Counted from the stretch's first letter, positions 1-38,001 are shown. The stretch is DNA of 64,000 nucleotides from Escherichia coli (GCF_048403405.1 NZ_CP183129.1), one strand, 5' to 3'. Program-made: numbers and translations. The notes: a model not told the origin generated them from the letters alone.

Positions 1-874
1 GGAGATCAACACTGGTATTCTGATTGCCAACGGCGCAGATATGAAACGCTGGCTGGCGAAGCTGACCAACAATAACGCTCAGGGTGAATACTACATCACC
101 GACATTATTGCGCTGGCGTATCAGGAAGGGCGTGAAATCGTCGCCGTTCATCCGCAACGTTTAAGCGAAGTAGAAGGCGTGAATAACCGCCTGCAACTCT
201 CCCGACTGGAGCGCGTTTACCAGTCCGAACAGGCTGAAAAACTGCTGTTAGCAGGCGTTATGCTGCGCGATCCGGCGCGTTTTGATCTGCGCGGTACGCT
301 TACTCACGGGCGCGATGTTGAAATTGATACTAACGTTATCATCGAGGGCAACGTGACTCTCGGTCATCGCGTGAAAATCGGCACCGGTTGTGTGATTAAA
401 AACAGCGTGATTGGCGATGATTGCGAAATTAGCCCGTATACCGTTGTGGAAGACGCGAATCTGGCGGCGGCCTGTACCATTGGCCCGTTTGCCCGTCTGC
501 GTCCTGGTGCTGAGTTGCTGGAAGGTGCACACGTCGGTAACTTCGTTGAGATGAAAAAAGCGCGTCTGGGTAAAGGCTCGAAAGCCGGGCATCTGACTTA
601 CCTGGGCGATGCGGAAATTGGCGATAACGTTAACATCGGCGCGGGAACCATTACCTGCAACTACGACGGTGCGAATAAATTTAAGACCATTATCGGTGAC
701 GATGTGTTTGTCGGTTCCGACACTCAGCTGGTGGCCCCGGTAACAGTAGGCAAAGGCGCGACCATTGCTGCGGGTACAACTGTGACGCGTAATGTCGGCG
801 AAAACGCCCTGGCGATCAGCCGTGTGCCGCAGACTCAAAAAGAAGGCTGGCGTCGTCCGGTAAAGAAAAAGTAA
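1..874 (+). CDS. glmU: GlmU, bifunctional UDP-GlcNAc pyrophosphorylase / GlcN-1-P acetyltransferase (3' part; 5' end outside window)
   Basis: ORF 41..874 translation is the left-handed beta-helix acetyltransferase C-terminus; frame is open to position 2; lies directly upstream of glmS as in E. coli. Confidence 0.9.
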
Positions 875-1035
875 TTCTGGCCGGGAAATCCGGTCATATG
901 GGATGAGGAGATAACATAATCTCCCGCCCACAAGCAGTAACTATAAAAATAACCCCACTCTCTACAAGGCTCGGGGTGCCCGAAAAAACGGGCATACAGG
1001 TTGACCGACAACGATATAAATCGGAATCAAAAACT

Positions 1036-2865
1036 ATGTGTGGAATTGTTGGCGCGATCGCGCAACGTGATGTAGCAGAAATCCTTCTTGAAGGTTTACG
1101 TCGTCTTGAATACCGCGGATATGACTCTGCCGGTCTGGCCGTTGTTGATGCAGAAGGTCATATGACCCGCCTGCGTCGCCTCGGTAAAGTCCAGATGCTG
1201 GCTCAGGCAGCGGAAGAACATCCTCTGCATGGCGGCACCGGTATTGCTCATACTCGCTGGGCGACCCACGGTGAACCTTCAGAAGCTAACGCGCATCCGC
1301 ATGTTTCTGAACACATTGTGGTGGTGCATAACGGCATCATCGAAAACCATGAACCGCTGCGTGAAGAGTTAAAAGCGCGTGGCTATACCTTCGTTTCTGA
1401 AACCGACACCGAAGTGATTGCCCATCTGGTGAACTGGGAGCTGAAACAAGGCGGTACTCTGCGTGAGGCTGTTCTGCGTGCTATCCCGCAACTGCGTGGT
1501 GCGTACGGTACAGTGATCATGGACTCCCGTCACCCGGATACCCTGCTGGCGGCACGTTCTGGTAGCCCGCTGGTGATTGGCCTGGGCATGGGCGAAAACT
1601 TTATCGCTTCTGACCAGCTGGCGCTGTTGCCAGTGACTCGTCGCTTTATCTTCCTTGAAGAGGGCGATATTGCGGAAATCACTCGCCGTTCGGTAAACAT
1701 CTTCGATAAAACTGGCGCGGAAGTAAAACGTCAGGATATCGAATCCAATCTGCAATATGACGCGGGTGATAAAGGTATTTACCGCCACTACATGCAGAAA
1801 GAGATCTACGAACAACCGAACGCGATCAAAAACACCCTTACCGGGCGCATCAGCCACGGTCAGGTTGATTTAAGCGAGCTGGGACCGAACGCCGACGAAC
1901 TGCTGTCGAAGGTTGAGCATATTCAGATCCTCGCCTGTGGTACTTCTTATAACTCCGGTATGGTTTCCCGCTACTGGTTTGAATCGCTGGCAGGTATTCC
2001 GTGCGACGTCGAAATCGCCTCTGAATTCCGCTATCGCAAATCTGCCGTGCGCCGTAACAGCCTGATGATCACCTTGTCACAGTCTGGCGAAACCGCGGAT
2101 ACCCTGGCGGGCCTGCGTCTGTCGAAAGAGCTGGGTTACCTTGGTTCGCTGGCAATCTGTAACGTTCCGGGTTCTTCTCTGGTGCGCGAATCCGATCTGG
2201 CGCTGATGACCAACGCCGGTACGGAAATTGGCGTGGCCTCCACCAAAGCATTCACCACCCAGTTAACTGTGCTGTTGATGCTGGTGGCGAAACTGTCTCG
2301 CCTGAAAGGTCTGGATGCCTCCATTGAACATGACATCGTGCATGGTCTGCAGGCGCTGCCGAGCCGTATTGAGCAGATGCTGTCTCAGGACAAACGCATT
2401 GAAGCGCTGGCAGAAGATTTCTCTGACAAACATCACGCGCTGTTCCTGGGACGTGGCGATCAGTACCCAATCGCGCTGGAAGGTGCATTGAAGCTGAAAG
2501 AGATCTCTTACATTCACGCTGAAGCCTACGCTGCGGGCGAACTGAAACACGGTCCGCTGGCGCTGATAGATGCCGATATGCCGGTTATCGTCGTTGCGCC
2601 GAACAACGAGTTGTTGGAAAAACTGAAATCTAACATTGAAGAAGTTCGCGCGCGTGGTGGTCAGTTGTATGTCTTCGCCGATCAGGATGCGGGTTTTGTG
2701 AGCAGTGACAACATGCACATCATTGAGATGCCGCATGTGGAAGAGGTTATTGCACCGATCTTCTACACCGTTCCGCTGCAACTGCTGGCTTACCACGTTG
2801 CGCTGATCAAAGGCACCGACGTTGACCAGCCGCGTAACCTGGCGAAATCGGTTACGGTTGAGTAA
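1036..2865 (+). CDS. glmS: Glutamine--fructose-6-phosphate aminotransferase
   Basis: Translation begins [12 protein letters not shown] (N-terminal Cys amidotransferase); the track ORF starts upstream at 976, the ATG at 1036 gives the canonical 609 aa. Confidence 0.96.
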
Positions 2866-2885
2866 TATCTCTCGTTGATAGAAAA

Positions 2886-2911
2886 GGGCTGCCGACCTGC
2901 GGCCCTTTTTT
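2886..2911 (+). terminator. Intrinsic terminator downstream of glmS
   Basis: GC-rich hairpin GGGCTGCCGACCTGCGGCCC followed by TTTTTT. Confidence 0.65.
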
Positions 2912-3172
2912 ATAAGTGATATCAATAATTCCATTATTCATATGCCCATTGATATAAATATATTCTGAATTATTGCTAATGTCTGATAATAAACTTGATT
3001 TCTTGCTGTTTTAATAATATTTAAATAATAAATTTATATTTAAGATTGAGTAATTAATATTATTTTTAGATAAAGTTGTCTCTTTGGTGTACTATTCCTT
3101 TGGATCAAAAATACACTTATTAATATAAGTGATGATTCATGGTAAAGGATATATTATATCAATGGAGTTTTT

Positions 3173-3745
3173 ATGAAGCGTAATATTATAGGCGGTGCAT
3201 TCACTCTGGCATCTCTAATGCTGGCCGGGAATGCACTGGCAGAAGATGGTGTTGTTCACTTCGTCGGTGAAATTGTCGACACTACTTGTGAAGTTACCTC
3301 CGATACAGCCGATCAAATTGTCCCACTGGGTAAAGTCAGTAAAAATGCTTTTTCAGGTGTAGGTAGTCTGGCGTCACCACAGCAGTTCAGTATTAAGCTT
3401 GAAAAGTGCCCGGCAACCTACACTCAGGCAGCCGTTCGTTTTGATGGTACAGAAGCGCCTGGCGGCGACGGCGACCTGAAAGTGGGTACGCCGCTTACAG
3501 CGGGCAACCCTGGCGATTTTACCGGTACAGGACAAGCGATTGCGGCAACGGGTGTCGGTATTCGTATTTTTAACCAGTCAGATAACTCGCAGGTTAAACT
3601 TTATAACGATTCTGCCTATACCGCTATCGACGCTGAAGGCAAGGCTGAAATGAAGTTTATTGCACGCTATGTGGCAACCAATGCAACTGTAACGGCGGGT
3701 ACGGCGAACGCCGATTCACAATTTACTGTCGAATATAAGAAATAA
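3173..3745 (+). CDS. lpfA: Fimbrial major subunit (long polar fimbria LpfA-like)
   Basis: 190 aa with a cleavable signal peptide (…LAGNALA) and fimbrial subunit architecture; first gene of a chaperone-usher cluster at the glmS-pstS position where lpf2 is known to sit. Confidence 0.75.
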   Translation: MKRNIIGGAFTLASLMLAGNALAEDGVVHFVGEIVDTTCEVTSDTADQIVPLGKVSKNAFSGVGSLASPQQFSIKLEKCPATYTQAAVRFDGTEAPGGDGDLKVGTPLTAGNPGDFTGTGQAIAATGVGIRIFNQSDNSQVKLYNDSAYTAIDAEGKAEMKFIARYVATNATVTAGTANADSQFTVEYKK

Positions 3746-3792
3746 TTTATCAAGGGCCTTTTTATTCAGTTGGCTTTGGCCAGGGAGTCGTT

Positions 3793-4524
3793 ATGTCCAG
3801 AAAAAGTTGTTTAATCAGGCTCTTTAAAACAACCGTTTCATGTAAGTTATTTACCGCGATTATACTCAGTGTTTTTTTAGTCCAACCAGCATTAACCTAT
3901 GCAGGCGTTGTCATTGGTGGTACACGGGTAGTTTACTTAAGTAATAACCCAGATAAATCTATTTCTGTATTTAGCAAGGAAGAAAAAATTCCTTATCTCA
4001 TCCAGGCATGGGTAGATCCGTTTAATAAAGAGGATAAAAGCAAAGCACCGTTTACCGTTATTCCTCCGGTATCACGATTAGAACCCGCGCAAGAAAAAGT
4101 ATTACGCATTATTCATACCAAAGGTGTGTCATTGCCTGATGATCGCGAGTCAGTCTTCTGGCTGAATATTAAAAATATTCCGCCCTCTGCGAGCAACAAA
4201 GCGGCGAACTCACTGGAAATCGCAGTTAAAACGCGTATCAAGCTGTTCTGGCGACCGGCAAGCATTCGCCTGATTCCCGAAGATGCTGCACCGAAGGTGA
4301 AGTGGCACCGGGAAGGGCGAAACCTGATTGTAGAGAATCCCAACCCGATTCATATCAGTGTGATGGATGTCATCGTTGATGGTCATGATGTGCCCCTCAA
4401 CATGATCCGTCCTTTTGAAACGCTCACGTTACCTTTACCTGCTAATTCTGCGGGAGGCCAAATGATCTGGCGATTTATTAATGATTACGGCGCAGTCAGT
4501 GACCCGATAAAAATGACGCTGTAA
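3793..4524 (+). CDS. lpfB: Periplasmic fimbrial chaperone (PapD-like)
   Basis: 243 aa with signal peptide; position and size fit a PapD-family chaperone; second gene of the cluster. Confidence 0.75.
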   Translation: MSRKSCLIRLFKTTVSCKLFTAIILSVFLVQPALTYAGVVIGGTRVVYLSNNPDKSISVFSKEEKIPYLIQAWVDPFNKEDKSKAPFTVIPPVSRLEPAQEKVLRIIHTKGVSLPDDRESVFWLNIKNIPPSASNKAANSLEIAVKTRIKLFWRPASIRLIPEDAAPKVKWHREGRNLIVENPNPIHISVMDVIVDGHDVPLNMIRPFETLTLPLPANSAGGQMIWRFINDYGAVSDPIKMTL

Positions 4525-4548
4525 GCAAGGGAAAAGGATAGGCGTATT

Positions 4549-7044
4549 ATGATGACGACCAGAATAAAGGTTGGCCTCACGGCAGGGACGTGTCTGATTT
4601 TCTCGCAAAGCCTGATGGCCGAGGTCAGTGTATTCAATCCGGCGCTTCTGGAAATCGACCATCAATCCGGAGTCGATATTCGCCAGTTTAATCGGGCAAA
4701 CCTGATGCCCCCAGGTTTTTATAGCGTTGATATTTTTATCAACGGTAAAATGTTTGAACGTCAGGATGTGACCTTTGTTCAGGATAATCCCGATGCTGAT
4801 TTACACGCCTGCTTTGTCGCTATTAAAAAAACGCTAACCACCTTTGGCGTAAAAGTTGATGCGCTGAAATCGCTCAATGATGTAGATGAAACAGTCTGTA
4901 TTGATCCTGGGCCACGCATTGAAGGCTCATCATGGCAGTTCGACAGCGATAAACTGCAACTGAATATCTCCATTCCCCAAATCTATATGGATGCGATGGC
5001 TTATGATTACATCAGCCCCTCGCGTTGGGATGAGGGGATTAACGCGCTCACCATCAACTACGATTTTTCTGGTTCACATACTCTACGTTCGGATTATGGT
5101 TCACAAGAGACAGATACCAGTTATCTCAATCTGCGCAATGGACTGAATATTGGGCCGTGGCGATTACGCAATTACAGCACCTTAAATACGACCGATGGCA
5201 GTGCAGAATACAACTCTATAAGCACCTGGATACAACGTGATATAGCTGCGTTAAGAAACCAGATTATGATAGGTGATACGTGGACGGCGAGCGATATCTT
5301 CGACAGTACGCAAATTCGTGGCGCACGCTTGTATACCGATAAAGATATGTTGCCTGCCAGCCAAAACGGATTTGCCCCCGTAGTGCGTGGGATTGCAAAG
5401 TCTAACGCCACTGTCATTATTCGCCAGAATGGCTACGTGATTTATCAGTCAGCCGTTCCACAAGGTGCTTTTGAAATTACCGATCTCAACACCGCCAGTA
5501 CAGGTGGTGATCTGGACGTAACCATCAAAGAAGAAGACGGTAGCGAACAACGATTTACTCAACCTTATGCGTCGTTAGCCATCCTCAAACGTGAAGGTCA
5601 AACTGATGTTGATGTCAGTGTGGGAGAATTACGCGATGAAGATGGCTTTACCCCTGACGTTATTCAGGCTCAGATCCTTCATGGTTTTCCCTACGGTTTC
5701 ACCTTATATGGAGGTATGCAGGCTGCTGAAAAGTATGGTTCTGCCGCTTTGGGTGTCGGTAAAGATCTTGGCGCATTGGGCGCAATTTCTTTCGATGTGA
5801 CACATGCTCGCGCGAAATTTAGCCATGATGATACGGAAACCGGTCAGTCTTATCGCTTCCTGTACTCGAAACGCTTTGACGATACGGATACCAGCTTGCG
5901 CCTGGTTGGCTATCGTTACTCCACCGAAGGTTATTATACCCTCAATGAATGGGCGTCCCGGCGTAATAATCCTGAAGATTTCTGGGAAACCGGTAACCGC
6001 CGCAGCCGTGTGGAAGGAACGTTAACGCAATCACTGGGCAGAGATTATGGCAACTTATATCTGACATTAAGTCGCCAGCAGTACTGGCATACCGATGATG
6101 TTGAACGATTAATGCAATTTGGCTACAGCAGTAGCTGGAAGCGTCTCTCGTGGAACGTCTCCTGGAGTTATTCCAATACTGCCCGGCAGGGGACGGGGAA
6201 CAACAATGCCAGTGATAACACCAGTGAGCAGATCTACATGCTCTCTTTATCTGTTCCTTTATCGGGCTGGTGGGGGAATAGTTACGCCACCTATTCTGTA
6301 TCGCAAAACGATAATTCCGGTAGCTCACATCAACTTGGACTCAGCGGTACGGCGCTGGAAAGAAATAACCTTTCCTGGAATTTAATGCAGTCCTATAACA
6401 GCCATGATGATGAGGTTGGCGGTAATATGTCCCTGACCTATGATGGCACTTATGGCACGGTGAACGGCAGCTATAACTACAGCCAAAATTCTCAGAGGCT
6501 GAATTATGGTATCAGAGGGGGAATTCTGGCTCACAGCGAAGGCGTAACGTTAAGCCAGGAGTTGGGTGAAACCATAGCTCTTGTTAAAGCACCAGGGGCT
6601 GCCGGGTTAGAAATAGACAATATGCGTGGTGCTGCGACGGACTGGCGTGGTTATACGGTCAAGACACAGCTAAACCCTTATGATGAAAACCGGGTAGCAA
6701 TCAGCGATAACTATTTCTCGAAGTCGAATATAGAACTTGATAATACCGTCGTTACGATGGTTCCCACCCGTGGCGCGGTGGTTAAAGCAGAATTTGTTAC
6801 CCACGTGGGCTATCGCGTACTCTTCAAAGTGGTGAATGCAAAAGGTAAGCCAGCACCTTTTGGCGCTATTGCTGCCGTACAAAATACAAGCTCTGCTGAT
6901 TCAGGGATTGTCGGTGACCTGGGGGAGCTTTATCTCTCCGGCCTTCCTGAAAAGGGGCAAGTGATGCTCTCCTGGGGGAAAATGCCGCCACTACATGTAC
7001 CTTCGATTATTCACTTTCAATACCAGAAAGTGAAAGCGGCTTAA
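4549..7044 (+). CDS. lpfC: Outer-membrane fimbrial usher
   Basis: 831 aa, signal peptide, aromatic-rich beta-barrel composition, typical usher size; uninterrupted here. Confidence 0.85.
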   Translation: MMTTRIKVGLTAGTCLIFSQSLMAEVSVFNPALLEIDHQSGVDIRQFNRANLMPPGFYSVDIFINGKMFERQDVTFVQDNPDADLHACFVAIKKTLTTFGVKVDALKSLNDVDETVCIDPGPRIEGSSWQFDSDKLQLNISIPQIYMDAMAYDYISPSRWDEGINALTINYDFSGSHTLRSDYGSQETDTSYLNLRNGLNIGPWRLRNYSTLNTTDGSAEYNSISTWIQRDIAALRNQIMIGDTWTASDIFDSTQIRGARLYTDKDMLPASQNGFAPVVRGIAKSNATVIIRQNGYVIYQSAVPQGAFEITDLNTASTGGDLDVTIKEEDGSEQRFTQPYASLAILKREGQTDVDVSVGELRDEDGFTPDVIQAQILHGFPYGFTLYGGMQAAEKYGSAALGVGKDLGALGAISFDVTHARAKFSHDDTETGQSYRFLYSKRFDDTDTSLRLVGYRYSTEGYYTLNEWASRRNNPEDFWETGNRRSRVEGTLTQSLGRDYGNLYLTLSRQQYWHTDDVERLMQFGYSSSWKRLSWNVSWSYSNTARQGTGNNNASDNTSEQIYMLSLSVPLSGWWGNSYATYSVSQNDNSGSSHQLGLSGTALERNNLSWNLMQSYNSHDDEVGGNMSLTYDGTYGTVNGSYNYSQNSQRLNYGIRGGILAHSEGVTLSQELGETIALVKAPGAAGLEIDNMRGAATDWRGYTVKTQLNPYDENRVAISDNYFSKSNIELDNTVVTMVPTRGAVVKAEFVTHVGYRVLFKVVNAKGKPAPFGAIAAVQNTSSADSGIVGDLGELYLSGLPEKGQVMLSWGKMPPLHVPSIIHFQYQKVKAA

Positions 7045-7080
7045 TTGAACAAGGTGTGACATGTCATTAAAAGGATTTTT

Positions 7081-8151
7081 ATGAATAAGTATATTATACA
7101 GTGGTGCTTGACTGTTTTTATCTTCTCCTTTAGTGGTGCAACATTTGCGGCCCCAAAAGGTATCTGCACCTCAGATAATGGGGCCTTTCATAGCACACTT
7201 GATTTTTCCGGCTATCTGATTACGGCAGACGAGAACAGAGAGGGAGAGACCTTTAATAAAACCGTGACAAATGGGGACTCTTATCCTGCTCACTGCCATT
7301 GTGATACAGGGAAAGTGGGGGAGTTTCCTTATATTTACTATACAGCGAGAATAAACGAGGCCTTAAGTTATGCGGGTGTTCGTTCTAATGTAAACTACTT
7401 TAATTTGAATCCTAATCTGGATGTTGGAATATCGATAGACCTTCTCGGTGTAGGATACATTAATGCACCTTTTGAATACCATGCTAACAGGCCTACTGGA
7501 GGTTCATATAAATGTAGTCGCACGGACCCATTAAGTATTTCCAGTGGTGCAAAAGCAATAATTTATTTTTATATTAAGAAGACTTTTGCTGGAAAGTTAA
7601 TTGTCCCTGAAACTCTCGTGGCAAAATTGTACGGAACTATAAGCCGTGACACTCCGGTTGATTACTCACAACCTATGGCCGATGTTTATATTCGTGGCGA
7701 TATCACTGCACCGCAAAGCTGTGAAATTAACAGTTTAAGACCCATTAATTTTGATTTTAAAGAAATTCCTGCAGCAGATTTTTCTTCGGTAGCTGGAAGT
7801 ACCGTGACAACGCATAAAATTACCAAAACTGTCACCATTGAGTGTGAAAATTTAGGAATACTAAATACTGATGATATCAGTACCTCTTTTTATGCTACCG
7901 AACCCAGTACTGACAACTCAATGGTCGTGACATCAAACCCGAACGTTGGGATAAAAATTTATGATAAAAATAATAAGGAAATCAACGTTAACGGTGGTGA
8001 ACTACCGACAGATATGGGTAAATCAAACGTCTTTGGTGAAAAAGCCGGTAGCGTCACTTTTTCTGCTGCTCCTGCAAGCCTCACGGGGGCTCGCCCCGCG
8101 CCAGGAACATTTACCGCGACTGCAACGATAACAATTGAGATTGTACGCTAA
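7081..8151 (+). CDS. lpfD: Fimbrial minor subunit / tip adhesin
   Basis: 356 aa with signal peptide; last gene of the cluster; AT-rich codon usage like the rest of the island. Confidence 0.65.
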   Translation: MNKYIIQWCLTVFIFSFSGATFAAPKGICTSDNGAFHSTLDFSGYLITADENREGETFNKTVTNGDSYPAHCHCDTGKVGEFPYIYYTARINEALSYAGVRSNVNYFNLNPNLDVGISIDLLGVGYINAPFEYHANRPTGGSYKCSRTDPLSISSGAKAIIYFYIKKTFAGKLIVPETLVAKLYGTISRDTPVDYSQPMADVYIRGDITAPQSCEINSLRPINFDFKEIPAADFSSVAGSTVTTHKITKTVTIECENLGILNTDDISTSFYATEPSTDNSMVVTSNPNVGIKIYDKNNKEINVNGGELPTDMGKSNVFGEKAGSVTFSAAPASLTGARPAPGTFTATATITIEIVR

Positions 8152-8292
8152 ACGAACTGACAGCGGTGTTCCTCACACCGTTGTCATCTTACGCATTTTT
8201 GTCCGCGAGTTTTCACTCTGCATGACAAAAAGATGACATTACTTTTCTTTTTCTTAGTCAATAAAATCAAAAAGTTAATTAATAATTCTGAT

Positions 8293-8336
8293 TTGTCATA
8301 AAACTGTCATAAACCTTACATATAACTGTCACCTGT
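8293..8336 (+). promoter_or_regulatory. pstS promoter Pho boxes (PhoB binding sites)
   Basis: Tandem CTGTCATAAAACTGTCAT … ACTGTCAC direct repeats about 60-100 bp upstream of the pstS ATG; matches the Pho-box consensus CTGTCATA(A/T)A(T/A)CTGT(C/A)A(C/T). Confidence 0.85.
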
Positions 8337-8380
8337 TTGTCCTATTTTGCTTCTCGTAGCCAACAAACAATGCTTTATGA

Positions 8381-9439
<1,059 letters not shown>

Positions 9440-9450
9440 TAAAACTCAGG

Positions 9451-9483
9451 CCGGGTACGGTATTTTTTACGCCGCATCCGGCA
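9451..9483. repeat. REP-like palindrome in the pstS-pstC intergenic region
   Basis: GCCGGGTACGG…GCCGCATCCGGC imperfect palindrome of the REP/PU type. Confidence 0.5.
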
Positions 9484-9523
9484 TTACAAAATGACTTTGT
9501 AAACGCGTTTAACTGAAGAGTAA

Positions 9524-11376
<1,853 letters not shown>

Positions 11377-11382
11377 CACTTT

Positions 11383-11425
11383 GCCGGATGCGGCGTGAAC
11401 GCCTGATCCGGCCTACGGTAAGCCT
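11383..11425. repeat. REP (palindromic unit) element between pstA and pstB
   Basis: GCCGGATGCGGCGTGAACGCCTGATCCGGCCTAC, classic REP sequence. Confidence 0.75.
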
Positions 11426-11427
11426 GA

Positions 11428-12240
<813 letters not shown>

Positions 12241-35850: not shown

Positions 35851-36003
<153 letters not shown>

Positions 36004-36239
36004 CTAAACTTGAATAAATTCAATGGCTTTATTGGATATCCGCCGAAAAATGAAACGATGGACACCGAAGCCATGGGTGATTAAAGAGGCCGGATTGTAA
36101 TAATTGTACACTCCGGAGTCAATTCTCTTTCCTTATTTACCGCGCTTTTCCGCACCTTTTCGCAGGGAAAATGTACGACCTCACACCAGTGAAAACCAGC
36201 ATGGCGCGCCGGGTGGAGGATTATACGGGCTGACGGGTA

Positions 36240-36480
36240 AAGCGCAAGGATCGTCCTGGATCTTTATTAGATCGATTAAGCCAATTTTTGTCTATGGTCA
36301 TTAAATTTTCCAATATGCGGCGTAAATCGTGCCCGCCTCGCGGCAGGATCGTTTACACTTAGCGAGTTCTGGAAAGTCCTGTGGATAAATCGGGAAAATC
36401 TGTGAGAAACAGAAGATCTCTTGCGCAGTTTAGGCTATGATCCGCGGTCCCGATCGTTTTGCAGGATCTTGATCGGGCAT
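36240..36480 (+). promoter_or_regulatory. dnaA promoter region with DnaA box and GATC cluster
   Basis: TGTGGATAA (reverse complement TTATCCACA) at 36380-36388; eight or more GATC sites across 36249-36474, four of them within 36439-36474. Confidence 0.85.
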
Positions 36481-36597
36481 ATAACCGCAGACAGCGGTTC
36501 GTGCGTCACCCTCATGCAGGGTCTTTTCGACGTACGTCAACAATCATGAATGTTTCAGCCTTAGTCATTATCGACTTTTGTTCGAGTGGAGTCCGCC

Positions 36598-38001
36598 GTG
36601 TCACTTTCGCTTTGGCAGCAGTGTCTTGCCCGATTGCAGGATGAGTTACCAGCCACAGAATTCAGTATGTGGATACGCCCATTGCAGGCGGAACTGAGCG
36701 ATAACACGCTGGCCCTGTACGCGCCAAATCGTTTTGTCCTCGATTGGGTACGGGACAAGTACCTTAATAATATCAATGGACTGCTAACCAGTTTCTGCGG
36801 AGCGGATGCCCCACAGCTGCGTTTTGAAGTCGGCACCAAACCGGTGACGCAAACGCCACAAGCGGCAGTGACGAGCAACGTCGCGGCCCCTGCACAGGTG
36901 GCGCAAACGCAGCCGCAACGTGCTGCGTCTTCTACGCGCTCAGGTTGGGATAACGTCCCGGCCCCGGCAGAACCGACCTATCGTTCTAACGTAAACGTCA
37001 AACACACGTTTGATAACTTCGTTGAAGGTAAATCTAACCAACTGGCGCGCGCGGCGGCTCGCCAGGTGGCAGATAACCCTGGCGGTGCCTATAACCCGTT
37101 GTTCCTTTATGGCGGCACGGGTCTGGGTAAAACTCACCTGCTGCATGCGGTGGGTAACGGCATTATGGCGCGCAAGCCGAATGCCAAAGTGGTTTATATG
37201 CACTCCGAGCGCTTTGTTCAGGACATGGTTAAAGCCCTGCAAAACAACGCGATCGAAGAGTTTAAACGCTACTACCGTTCCGTAGATGCACTGCTGATCG
37301 ACGATATTCAGTTTTTTGCTAATAAAGAACGATCTCAGGAAGAGTTTTTCCACACCTTCAACGCCCTGCTGGAAGGTAATCAACAGATCATTCTCACCTC
37401 GGATCGCTATCCGAAAGAGATCAACGGCGTTGAGGATCGTTTGAAATCCCGCTTCGGCTGGGGGCTGACTGTGGCGATCGAACCGCCAGAGCTGGAAACC
37501 CGCGTGGCGATCCTGATGAAAAAGGCCGACGAAAACGACATTCGTTTGCCGGGCGAAGTGGCGTTCTTTATCGCCAAGCGTCTACGATCTAACGTACGTG
37601 AGCTGGAAGGCGCGCTGAACCGCGTTATTGCTAACGCCAACTTTACCGGACGGGCGATCACCATCGACTTCGTGCGTGAGGCGCTGCGCGACTTGCTGGC
37701 ATTGCAGGAAAAACTGGTCACCATCGACAATATTCAGAAGACGGTGGCGGAGTACTACAAGATCAAAGTCGCGGATCTCCTTTCCAAGCGTCGATCCCGC
37801 TCGGTGGCGCGTCCGCGCCAGATGGCGATGGCGCTGGCGAAAGAGCTGACTAACCACAGTCTGCCGGAGATTGGCGATGCGTTTGGTGGCCGTGACCACA
37901 CGACGGTGCTTCATGCCTGCCGTAAGATCGAGCAGCTGCGTGAAGAGAGCCACGATATCAAAGAAGATTTTTCCAATTTAATCAGAACATTGTCATCGTA
38001 A
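36598..38001 (+). CDS. dnaA: Chromosomal replication initiator protein
   Basis: GTG start, begins [24 protein letters not shown]+ Walker [11 protein letters not shown]; 467 aa. Confidence 0.97.

Follow-up and report, generated by a model that had tools for sequence, protein, structure and literature searches.

The dnaA control region of an Escherichia coli strain is essentially in its K-12 form

Identity and location of the region

The stretch between the divergent genes rpmH and dnaA is almost certainly the native E. coli dnaA promoter/operator, and no feature of the sequence speaks against this. It was analyzed here within a window, by which we mean the whole stretch of 64 kb of E. coli DNA under study. 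The dnaA control region is textbook and essentially in its K-12 form; it is already known, and nothing new is revealed by it. It has the sequence elements of the K-12 region, is nearly identical to it throughout, and shows deep conservation of those elements among Enterobacterales. The two genes are separated by 606 bp and have the following positions.

35851–35991, minus strand: rpmH (ribosomal protein L34), identified as an ORF and by annotation (K-12 and strain 266917_2), bounding the intergenic region
36598–38001, plus strand: dnaA coding sequence, GTG start, 467 amino acids

ORFs on the minus strand correspond to yidC, yidD, rnpA, and rpmH, and those on the plus strand to dnaA, dnaN, recF, and gyrB. 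This order, with rpmH pointing away from dnaA-dnaN-recF-gyrB, is the standard arrangement of E. coli, including K-12. The rpmH-dnaA intergenic region is identical to that of K-12 MG1655 at 626 of 629 positions, with every named element of the dnaA promoter unchanged. The three differences (36192, A/G; 36234, C/T; and 36515, T/A) avoid the GATC sites, the DnaA boxes, the P2 hexamers, the Shine-Dalgarno sequence, and the start codon. The encoded DnaA protein is identical to K-12 DnaA at 466 of 467 amino acids, the single difference being P111S in the domain II linker. The near-identity to the K-12 dnaA locus bears out the original prediction that the window lies in the replication-initiation gene neighborhood. 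Together with the literature on the K-12 region, it also supports the identification of the known DnaA-autoregulated, Dam/SeqA-sequestered dnaA promoter. A 609-bp query covering the gap found a chromosomal match, and no other, in 5,424 of the 5,426 complete E. coli genomes, and 4,017 of these matches had at least 99% identity.

The origin itself had been placed outside the window, and this proved correct. A blastn search of the 64-kb window with the K-12 rsmG-mnmG-oriC-mioC segment gave no match. Window positions 1–12000 are collinear with strain MS 69-1 (100.0% identity, one single-base indel), window base 1 falling inside glmU of that strain. In MS 69-1, the mioC-mnmG gap lies leftward of window base 1, at a distance of ~11 kb, and is ~48 kb from the dnaA start. 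A location of oriC inside the window was rejected on these two grounds. The locus therefore serves as a positional anchor, with dnaA ~48 kb from oriC and oriC ~11 kb past the left edge.

The description of the region as highly conserved holds for the backbone but not for the remainder of the window, as coverage of window positions 1–12000 reaches 80% in only 1,931 of 5,424 genomes. Inserted genes in the window, named from the annotation of strains collinear with it, encode lpf-O113 fimbriae, an EspY4-type effector, and a ShET2/EspL2-type effector, the last situated between mnmE and tnaC. In this strain, the control region of the initiator gene is wild-type, and unusual biology must therefore be sought elsewhere in the window, for example among the inserted effector and fimbrial genes.

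DnaA boxes and promoters of dnaA

The boxes and promoter elements upstream of dnaA are as follows.

36347–36359, plus strand: GATC (36347–36350) and probable P1 -10 hexamer TACACT (36354–36359)
36380–36388, minus strand: DnaA Box1, exact consensus TTATCCACA (plus strand, TGTGGATAA)
36401–36409, minus strand: second DnaA-box-like 9-mer, TTTCTCACA on the minus strand
36413–36418, plus strand: P2 -35 hexamer AAGATC, overlapping GATC 36415 and AGATCT (36414–36419)
36436–36441, plus strand: P2 -10 hexamer TATGAT, containing the start of GATC 36439 (TATGATC, 36436–36442)
36442–36447, plus strand: GC-rich discriminator CCGCGG, directly after the P2 -10

A DnaA box had been predicted at 36380–36388 on the opposite strand, and TGTGGATAA is indeed found there; exact alignment shows the box to be present and identical in K-12. 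The abundance of such motifs is unremarkable, with two exact TTATCCACA sequences and six TTWTNCACA matches in the window against ~7 expected. As there is no enrichment in the window, the count was dropped as evidence in favor of conservation; the significance of Box1 derives from its position and conservation. The second 9-mer (TGTGAGAAA) has the same orientation as Box1 and lies 21 bp away; it is probably Box2, which published K-12 work places upstream of P2 (PMC5835720). Further DnaA sites in K-12 comprise, besides box 2, sites a, b, and c, some of which need DnaA-ATP (PMC5835720), and AGATCT, as occurs across the P2 -35, is of the ATP-DnaA box type (PMC8203912).

Two promoters drive dnaA in K-12 (PMC5835720), with Box 1 located between them (PMC5835720; PMC8203912). 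In dnaA2p of K-12, the -10 and -35 each have a GATC, and methylation has a two-fold effect on activity, raising it (PMC5835720). The CCGCGG sequence, which immediately precedes +1, has been termed a 'Travers box' (PMC5835720), and sensitivity of P2 to ppGpp via this discriminator has been published for K-12. From these elements, transcription from P2 would start at ~36448–36450. The hexamer TACACT at 36354–36359 is likely the -10 of P1, as judged from the reported placement of a box between the promoters and from the distance between them. For the latter we assumed that P1 lies ~80 bp upstream of P2, and this spacing was used to place P1 here. A generic sigma-70 promoter scan flagged neither P1 nor P2, whose -35 hexamers are poor; the evidence for their positions thus comes from the literature and from conservation. 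The promoter and terminator scan yielded only the proximal rpmH promoter-like site described below and a weak minus-strand hairpin.

GATC cluster

The original prediction counted at least eight GATC sites within ~230 bp, which is correct; there are nine, one more than the minimum given. They are located at 36249, 36259, 36270, 36347, 36415, 36439, 36452, 36465, and 36471, and span 226 bp (36249–36474) with successive spacings of 10, 11, 77, 68, 24, 13, 13, and 6 bp. The K-12 dnaA region has likewise been described as having '9 GATC sites within 225 bp' (PMC5835720). SeqA needs closely spaced hemimethylated sites, according to published K-12 work (PMC5835720), and closely spaced pairs fit for SeqA dimers are present in the cluster. 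Groups of GATC sites referred to below are these.

36249–36273, either strand: upstream GATC triad (36249, 36259, and 36270), 10 and 11 bp apart, or about one helical turn
36452–36474, either strand: three GATC sites just 3' of the P2 start (36452, 36465, and 36471)
37251–37929, either strand: second GATC cluster, within the dnaA gene and comprising 15 sites over 679 bp

The density computation proposed with the prediction was carried out. The whole window has 268 GATC sites, or one per 239 bp, such that the cluster is ~9.5-fold above the average, and no other 230-bp stretch of the 64 kb is as dense. The Poisson probability of at least nine sites is 8e-7 (~2e-4 after correction for ~278 windows), and of 300 simulated windows (first-order Markov), only one attained nine sites.

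The dnaA coding sequence also has a local excess. Its 15 GATC sites compare with 8.9 ± 2.1 expected from synonymous-codon shuffles, 15 having been reached in 11 of 2000 shuffles. Across the listed species, the density of GATC in dnaA coding sequences is only 5.4 per kb.

Conservation across Enterobacterales

Loci from other species were picked, one genome per species, through a degenerate pattern confined to dnaA coding sequence, and the promoter therefore had no part in their selection. At least 120 Enterobacterales loci were obtained, and 99 of those listed have a complete rpmH-dnaA gap; the footprint was read from a 100-sequence alignment, and as the species are related, the counts are not independent. 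Across these listed loci, the median is 10 GATC sites per gap, corresponding to 14.3 per kb, as against 4.05 per kb in the flanks.

Most intergenic columns in the 100-sequence alignment are less than 50% identical to the window. Set within this diverged sequence are blocks that are at least 90% conserved, namely CCTGTGGATAAA, the TCTGTGAG core of the second 9-mer, GAAGATCT, TAGGCTATGATCCGC, and the Shine-Dalgarno/start block. The elements thus form a clear footprint against their diverged surroundings, which supports their function. Exact TGTGGATAA occurs in register and in the same orientation in 98 of the 99 listed species. Within P2, 96 of 99 retain the -10 hexamer TATGAT and 94 of 99 have nnGATC at the -35, and GATC 36415 and GATC 36439 are each in register in 94 of 99. 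The strongest constraint across Enterobacterales is accordingly on the DnaA box and on the GATC sites built into P2. The other GATC sites are kept to varying extents. In the upstream triad, 36249 is in register in 93 of 99 listed species, and 36259 and 36270 each in 57; the sites 3' of the P2 start (36452, 36465, and 36471) are in register in 50, 75, and 4 of 99, respectively. The P1 stretch is poorly conserved outside Escherichia. Closer to home, five diverse E. coli genomes and E. albertii show no variation in any of the nine GATC sites or in either box. Regulatory features of dnaA were reportedly found by Skovgaard and Hansen in 1987 to be conserved among E. coli, Salmonella, and Serratia.

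Start codon and leader of dnaA

The predicted GTG start at 36598 was confirmed by exact alignment, as the codon (36598–36600) coincides with the first base of annotated K-12 dnaA (b3702). Of 120 listed Enterobacterales loci, 119 have GTG at the aligned position. A Shine-Dalgarno sequence, GGAG (36588–36591), is located six bases upstream of it, and the leader stretch GAGTGGAGTCCGCCGTG is conserved in 71 of 99 listed species.

36448–36597, plus strand: dnaA 5' leader from P2, ~150 nt, including GGAG (36588–36591)

No RNA family was detected between 35400 and 36800 by an Rfam scan at E≤1, and there is therefore no evidence for a structured leader or sRNA. An in-frame GTG at 36586, four codons upstream, was returned by the ORF finder and rejected as the start, as it overlaps the GGAG and is without a ribosome-binding site of its own. 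All annotations place the dnaA start at 36598, not 36586.

Regulation of dnaA

The elements in this strain would be expected to support the DnaA binding, the activation and repression, and the sequestration described for K-12, as judged from their sequence. Two promoters would feed dnaA, a distal weak P1 and a proximal P2 that is ~three-fold stronger. At low DnaA-ATP, DnaA bound to Box1 and to the second box 21 bp downstream would stimulate P2. At high DnaA-ATP, the bound DnaA would nucleate an oligomer that extends across ATP-DnaA sites, among them the AGATCT at the P2 -35, and that occludes RNA polymerase, resulting in autoregulation. In K-12, autoregulation requires a DnaA box (PMC5835720), and full repression also takes the ATP-DnaA boxes (PMC8203912). 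The autoregulation by DnaA that had been predicted is established in K-12, but it is not simple repression from one box: published work on K-12 shows that Box1 and Box2 both activate and repress.

Methylation would provide a further level of control. Full methylation of the GATC sites in the P2 -35 and -10 would favor transcription. The replication fork, coming from oriC ~48 kb away, would arrive about a minute after initiation and leave the GATC sites hemimethylated, and SeqA bound to these would block Dam as well as RNA polymerase during a portion of the cell cycle, such that DnaA synthesis pauses. The discriminator CCGCGG would make P2 sensitive to ppGpp, and translation would proceed from the GTG at 36598 behind the GGAG. 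Neither dam nor seqA lies within the 64-kb window; Dam and SeqA are assumed to be present because the organism is E. coli, as 100% matches to complete E. coli chromosomes show, and both genes are standard in such chromosomes.

Several of these steps have been documented in K-12. The five GATC sites around P2 are bound by SeqA, and the SeqA ChIP signal spans the whole dnaA gene (published K-12 work). Remethylation at dnaA is delayed in a SeqA-dependent manner for ~1/5 of the doubling time, and dnaA transcription pauses (PMC5835720). For the prolonged, SeqA-dependent hemimethylation of K-12 dnaA, PMC5835720 cites Campbell and Kleckner 1990 together with Lu et al. 1994. Sequestration by SeqA, also part of the prediction, has therefore been shown in K-12, but its importance is modest. 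Initiation synchrony was reportedly kept when several of the promoter GATC sites were removed (Wilkinson et al. 2006, as cited in later K-12 work), and the physiological weight of sequestration at the dnaA promoter is therefore limited.

Two other explanations of the region can be weighed against this regulatory role. It is scarcely credible that the GATC cluster and its lone 9-mer box arose by chance in an AT/GC-balanced intergenic region and are devoid of regulatory function. One exact box in 64 kb is statistically ordinary by the counts given above, and by itself would accord with chance. Nine GATC sites within 226 bp are not ordinary, by either the Poisson estimate or the simulations, and the box and the P2-embedded GATC sites have been kept in 94–98 of 99 listed species while neighboring sequence diverged. 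This explanation is effectively refuted by conservation and density statistics, and decades of K-12 experiments on an identical sequence likewise speak against it. It also seems very unlikely that the boxes mainly titrate DnaA, acting as a sink that sets the initiation mass instead of controlling dnaA transcription. Such a role would fit with the derepression of dnaA by plasmids that carry the dnaA promoter region (PMC5835720). However, the three to four DnaA molecules involved are a small share of the titration capacity of the cell, of which other sites such as datA hold far more (PMC5835720), and box mutations directly alter P2 output in published K-12 work. Titration and autoregulation are, moreover, two views of one binding event.

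Divergent promoter-like sites and ysdD

The side of the intergenic region nearer rpmH contains two promoter-like sites and a small ORF.

36094–36122, minus strand: proximal rpmH promoter-like site TTGACT-17-TACAAT, from the promoter scan
36220–36247, minus strand: distal promoter-like site TTGCGC-16-TATAAT, read from the sequence and pointing to rpmH
36221–36301, minus strand: ysdD small ORF, 26 amino acids (b4757 in K-12), antisense to the upstream dnaA promoter region

Three promoters upstream of rpmH have been published, and we infer that TTGACT-17-TACAAT is one of these. Its hexamers are kept in 95–97 of 99 listed species. The distal site, which is situated in a conserved block, has TATAAT in register in 97 of 99 and TTGCGC in 78 of 99, and may also act as a promoter.

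The ysdD ORF covers the GATC triad and ends inside the distal TATAAT. YsdD differs from its K-12 counterpart by H23R, which is caused by the change at 36234. Only 15 of 99 listed species have this ORF intact and in register, and the conserved YsdD residues are exactly those encoded by the GATC sites and the distal -35. The identification of ysdD presumably originates from ribosome-profiling studies; a literature search for ysdD returned nothing relevant.

These features raise the question of which transcription unit the triad serves. One alternative is that the triad (36249–36273) belongs to the divergent unit, either as a Dam/SeqA-sensitive element of a minus-strand promoter feeding rpmH-rnpA-yidD-yidC or as sequence constrained by YsdD coding. 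GATC 36249 adjoins the -35 of the distal minus-strand site, with its nearly invariant TATAAT; the triad is ~100 bp upstream of the putative P1 start as compared with only 37–60 bp from the putative minus-strand start; the ysdD frame spans all three GATC sites; and three promoters have been reported upstream of rpmH. We nevertheless regard this assignment as unlikely. All nine GATC sites are counted in the literature to the dnaA promoter region, which is sequestered as a whole (PMC5835720). Protein coding cannot explain the conservation, since ysdD is intact in 15 of 99 listed species whereas GATC 36249 is kept in 93. Roles of the triad at dnaA and at the divergent promoter are also not mutually exclusive. 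Tentatively, then, and with little confidence, the triad might be envisioned as a shared switch, at which SeqA acting after passage of the fork would transiently silence dnaA together with part of the transcription of rpmH-rnpA-yidD-yidC. The conservation of YsdD would in that case be a by-product of the DNA elements and not of selection on the peptide.

Comparison with known systems

The closest known system is the dnaAp1/dnaAp2 region of K-12 (Hansen et al. 1982; review, PMC5835720). The two are one and the same locus and share the nine GATC sites, boxes, AGATCT, P2 hexamers, CCGCGG, Shine-Dalgarno sequence, and GTG; the differences consist of the three base changes outside these elements, YsdD H23R, and DnaA P111S. 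Like E. coli oriC, the region combines consensus DnaA boxes with a ~ten-fold GATC density and a SeqA-dependent delay in remethylation. Unlike oriC, the dnaA region is without origin function and has one consensus box with weaker sites in place of a multi-box orisome array. Sequestration lasts ~1/5 of the doubling time at dnaA as compared with 1/3 at oriC (PMC5835720), and the output is dnaA transcription here and DNA unwinding at oriC. The mioC promoter and other DnaA-repressed promoters similarly have closely spaced DnaA boxes that overlap or precede the promoter, and are repressed by DnaA-ATP (PMC5835720). The dnaA promoter differs from mioC in having GATC sites built into its -35 and -10 hexamers.

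A related logic operates in a more distant bacterium. In Caulobacter crescentus, the methylation state of the dnaA promoter, set by CcrM at GANTC, changes with passage of the fork and tunes the synthesis of the initiator through the cell cycle. E. coli follows the same logic, but the methyltransferase and motif are different and SeqA is not known to be involved in C. crescentus, making this an analogy and not a homology.

Sequence variation next to Box1 in E. coli

The segment from 36343 to 36419 is identical to the window in 3,400 of 5,423 E. coli genomes. In 1,456 E. coli genomes (~27%), GGATCATCC replaces GGAAAGTCC at 36371–36379. The GGATCATCC allele creates a tenth GATC, three bases from Box1, and its carriers include Nissle 1917, U15A, strain 105, and an O157:H7 strain.

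Elements of the rpmH–dnaA intergenic region

The minus strand of the region between the divergent genes rpmH and dnaA contains two promoter-like sites directed at rpmH, a small ORF antisense to the dnaA promoter region, and a terminator-like hairpin.

36094–36122, minus strand: proximal promoter-like site, directed at rpmH
36196–36212, minus strand: terminator-like hairpin, CCGGCGCGCCATGCTGG followed by TTTTCACTGG
36220–36247, minus strand: distal promoter-like site, TTGCGC-16-TATAAT, directed at rpmH
36221–36301, minus strand: ysdD, small ORF of 26 amino acids

Both promoter-like sites are conserved among the 99 Enterobacterales species compared (one genome per species). The perfect -10 element (TATAAT) of the distal site occurs in 97 of these, and the proximal site (TTGACT-17-TACAAT) in 95–97. 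The -35 element of the distal site adjoins the first site of the dnaA promoter GATC cluster (nine Dam sites, 36249–36474). Because of this adjacency and the conservation of the rpmH-facing sites, the divergent rpmH operon may be an additional target of the upstream GATC triad of the cluster (36249, 36259, and 36270).

Three GATCs fall within ysdD, whose 3' end is located inside the TATAAT of the distal site. The product differs from that of K-12 by H23R, and an intact ORF in the same register occurs in only 15 of the 99 species. The GATCs and the -35 element specify the conserved part of YsdD (RSNKDP..RSLRF), and thus conservation of ysdD may reflect these DNA elements rather than the peptide. 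The partially conserved hairpin lies directly after the ysdD stop codon and directly downstream of the position inferred as the start for the distal promoter-like site, and could be either a ysdD terminator or a 5' stem-loop.

A within-species polymorphism occurs beside DnaA Box1, the exact consensus box at 36380–36388 (minus strand). At 36371–36379, 1,456 of the 5,423 E. coli genomes have GGATCATCC in place of GGAAAGTCC; among the carriers are Nissle 1917, U15A, strain 105, and one O157:H7 strain. This allele brings the number of GATCs to ten, with the additional site located three bases upstream of the box. The window has the K-12-type allele, common to 3,400 genomes.

GATC sites and DnaA-box matches outside the promoter region

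A second GATC cluster occurs inside the dnaA coding sequence.

37251–37929, strand not applicable: 15 GATC sites in 679 bp

Synonymous-codon shuffling predicts 8.9 ± 2.1 coding GATCs for dnaA as compared to the 15 observed (≥15 in 11 of 2,000 shuffles). This excess is absent from dnaN, recF, gyrB, and yidC, and is smaller in other Enterobacterales (5.4 per kb). It is consistent with the published SeqA ChIP signal, which extends over the whole dnaA gene. Also within the dnaA coding sequence, TTTTCCACA (37346–37354, plus strand) fits a relaxed DnaA-box consensus. Besides Box1, the single exact consensus match in the window, TTATCCACA (27190–27198, plus strand), is located inside tnaB.

Strain-variable insertions

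The oriC-proximal backbone has strain-variable insertions at 1–8300 and about 13600–32000. Among these are the lpf-O113 fimbrial operon (between glmS and pstS), T3SS effector-type genes (EspY4-like and ShET2/EspL2-like, the latter between mnmE and tnaC), and a pentapeptide-repeat protein gene. Two paralogous stretches, about 13605–13825 and 18054–18274, are 70% similar.
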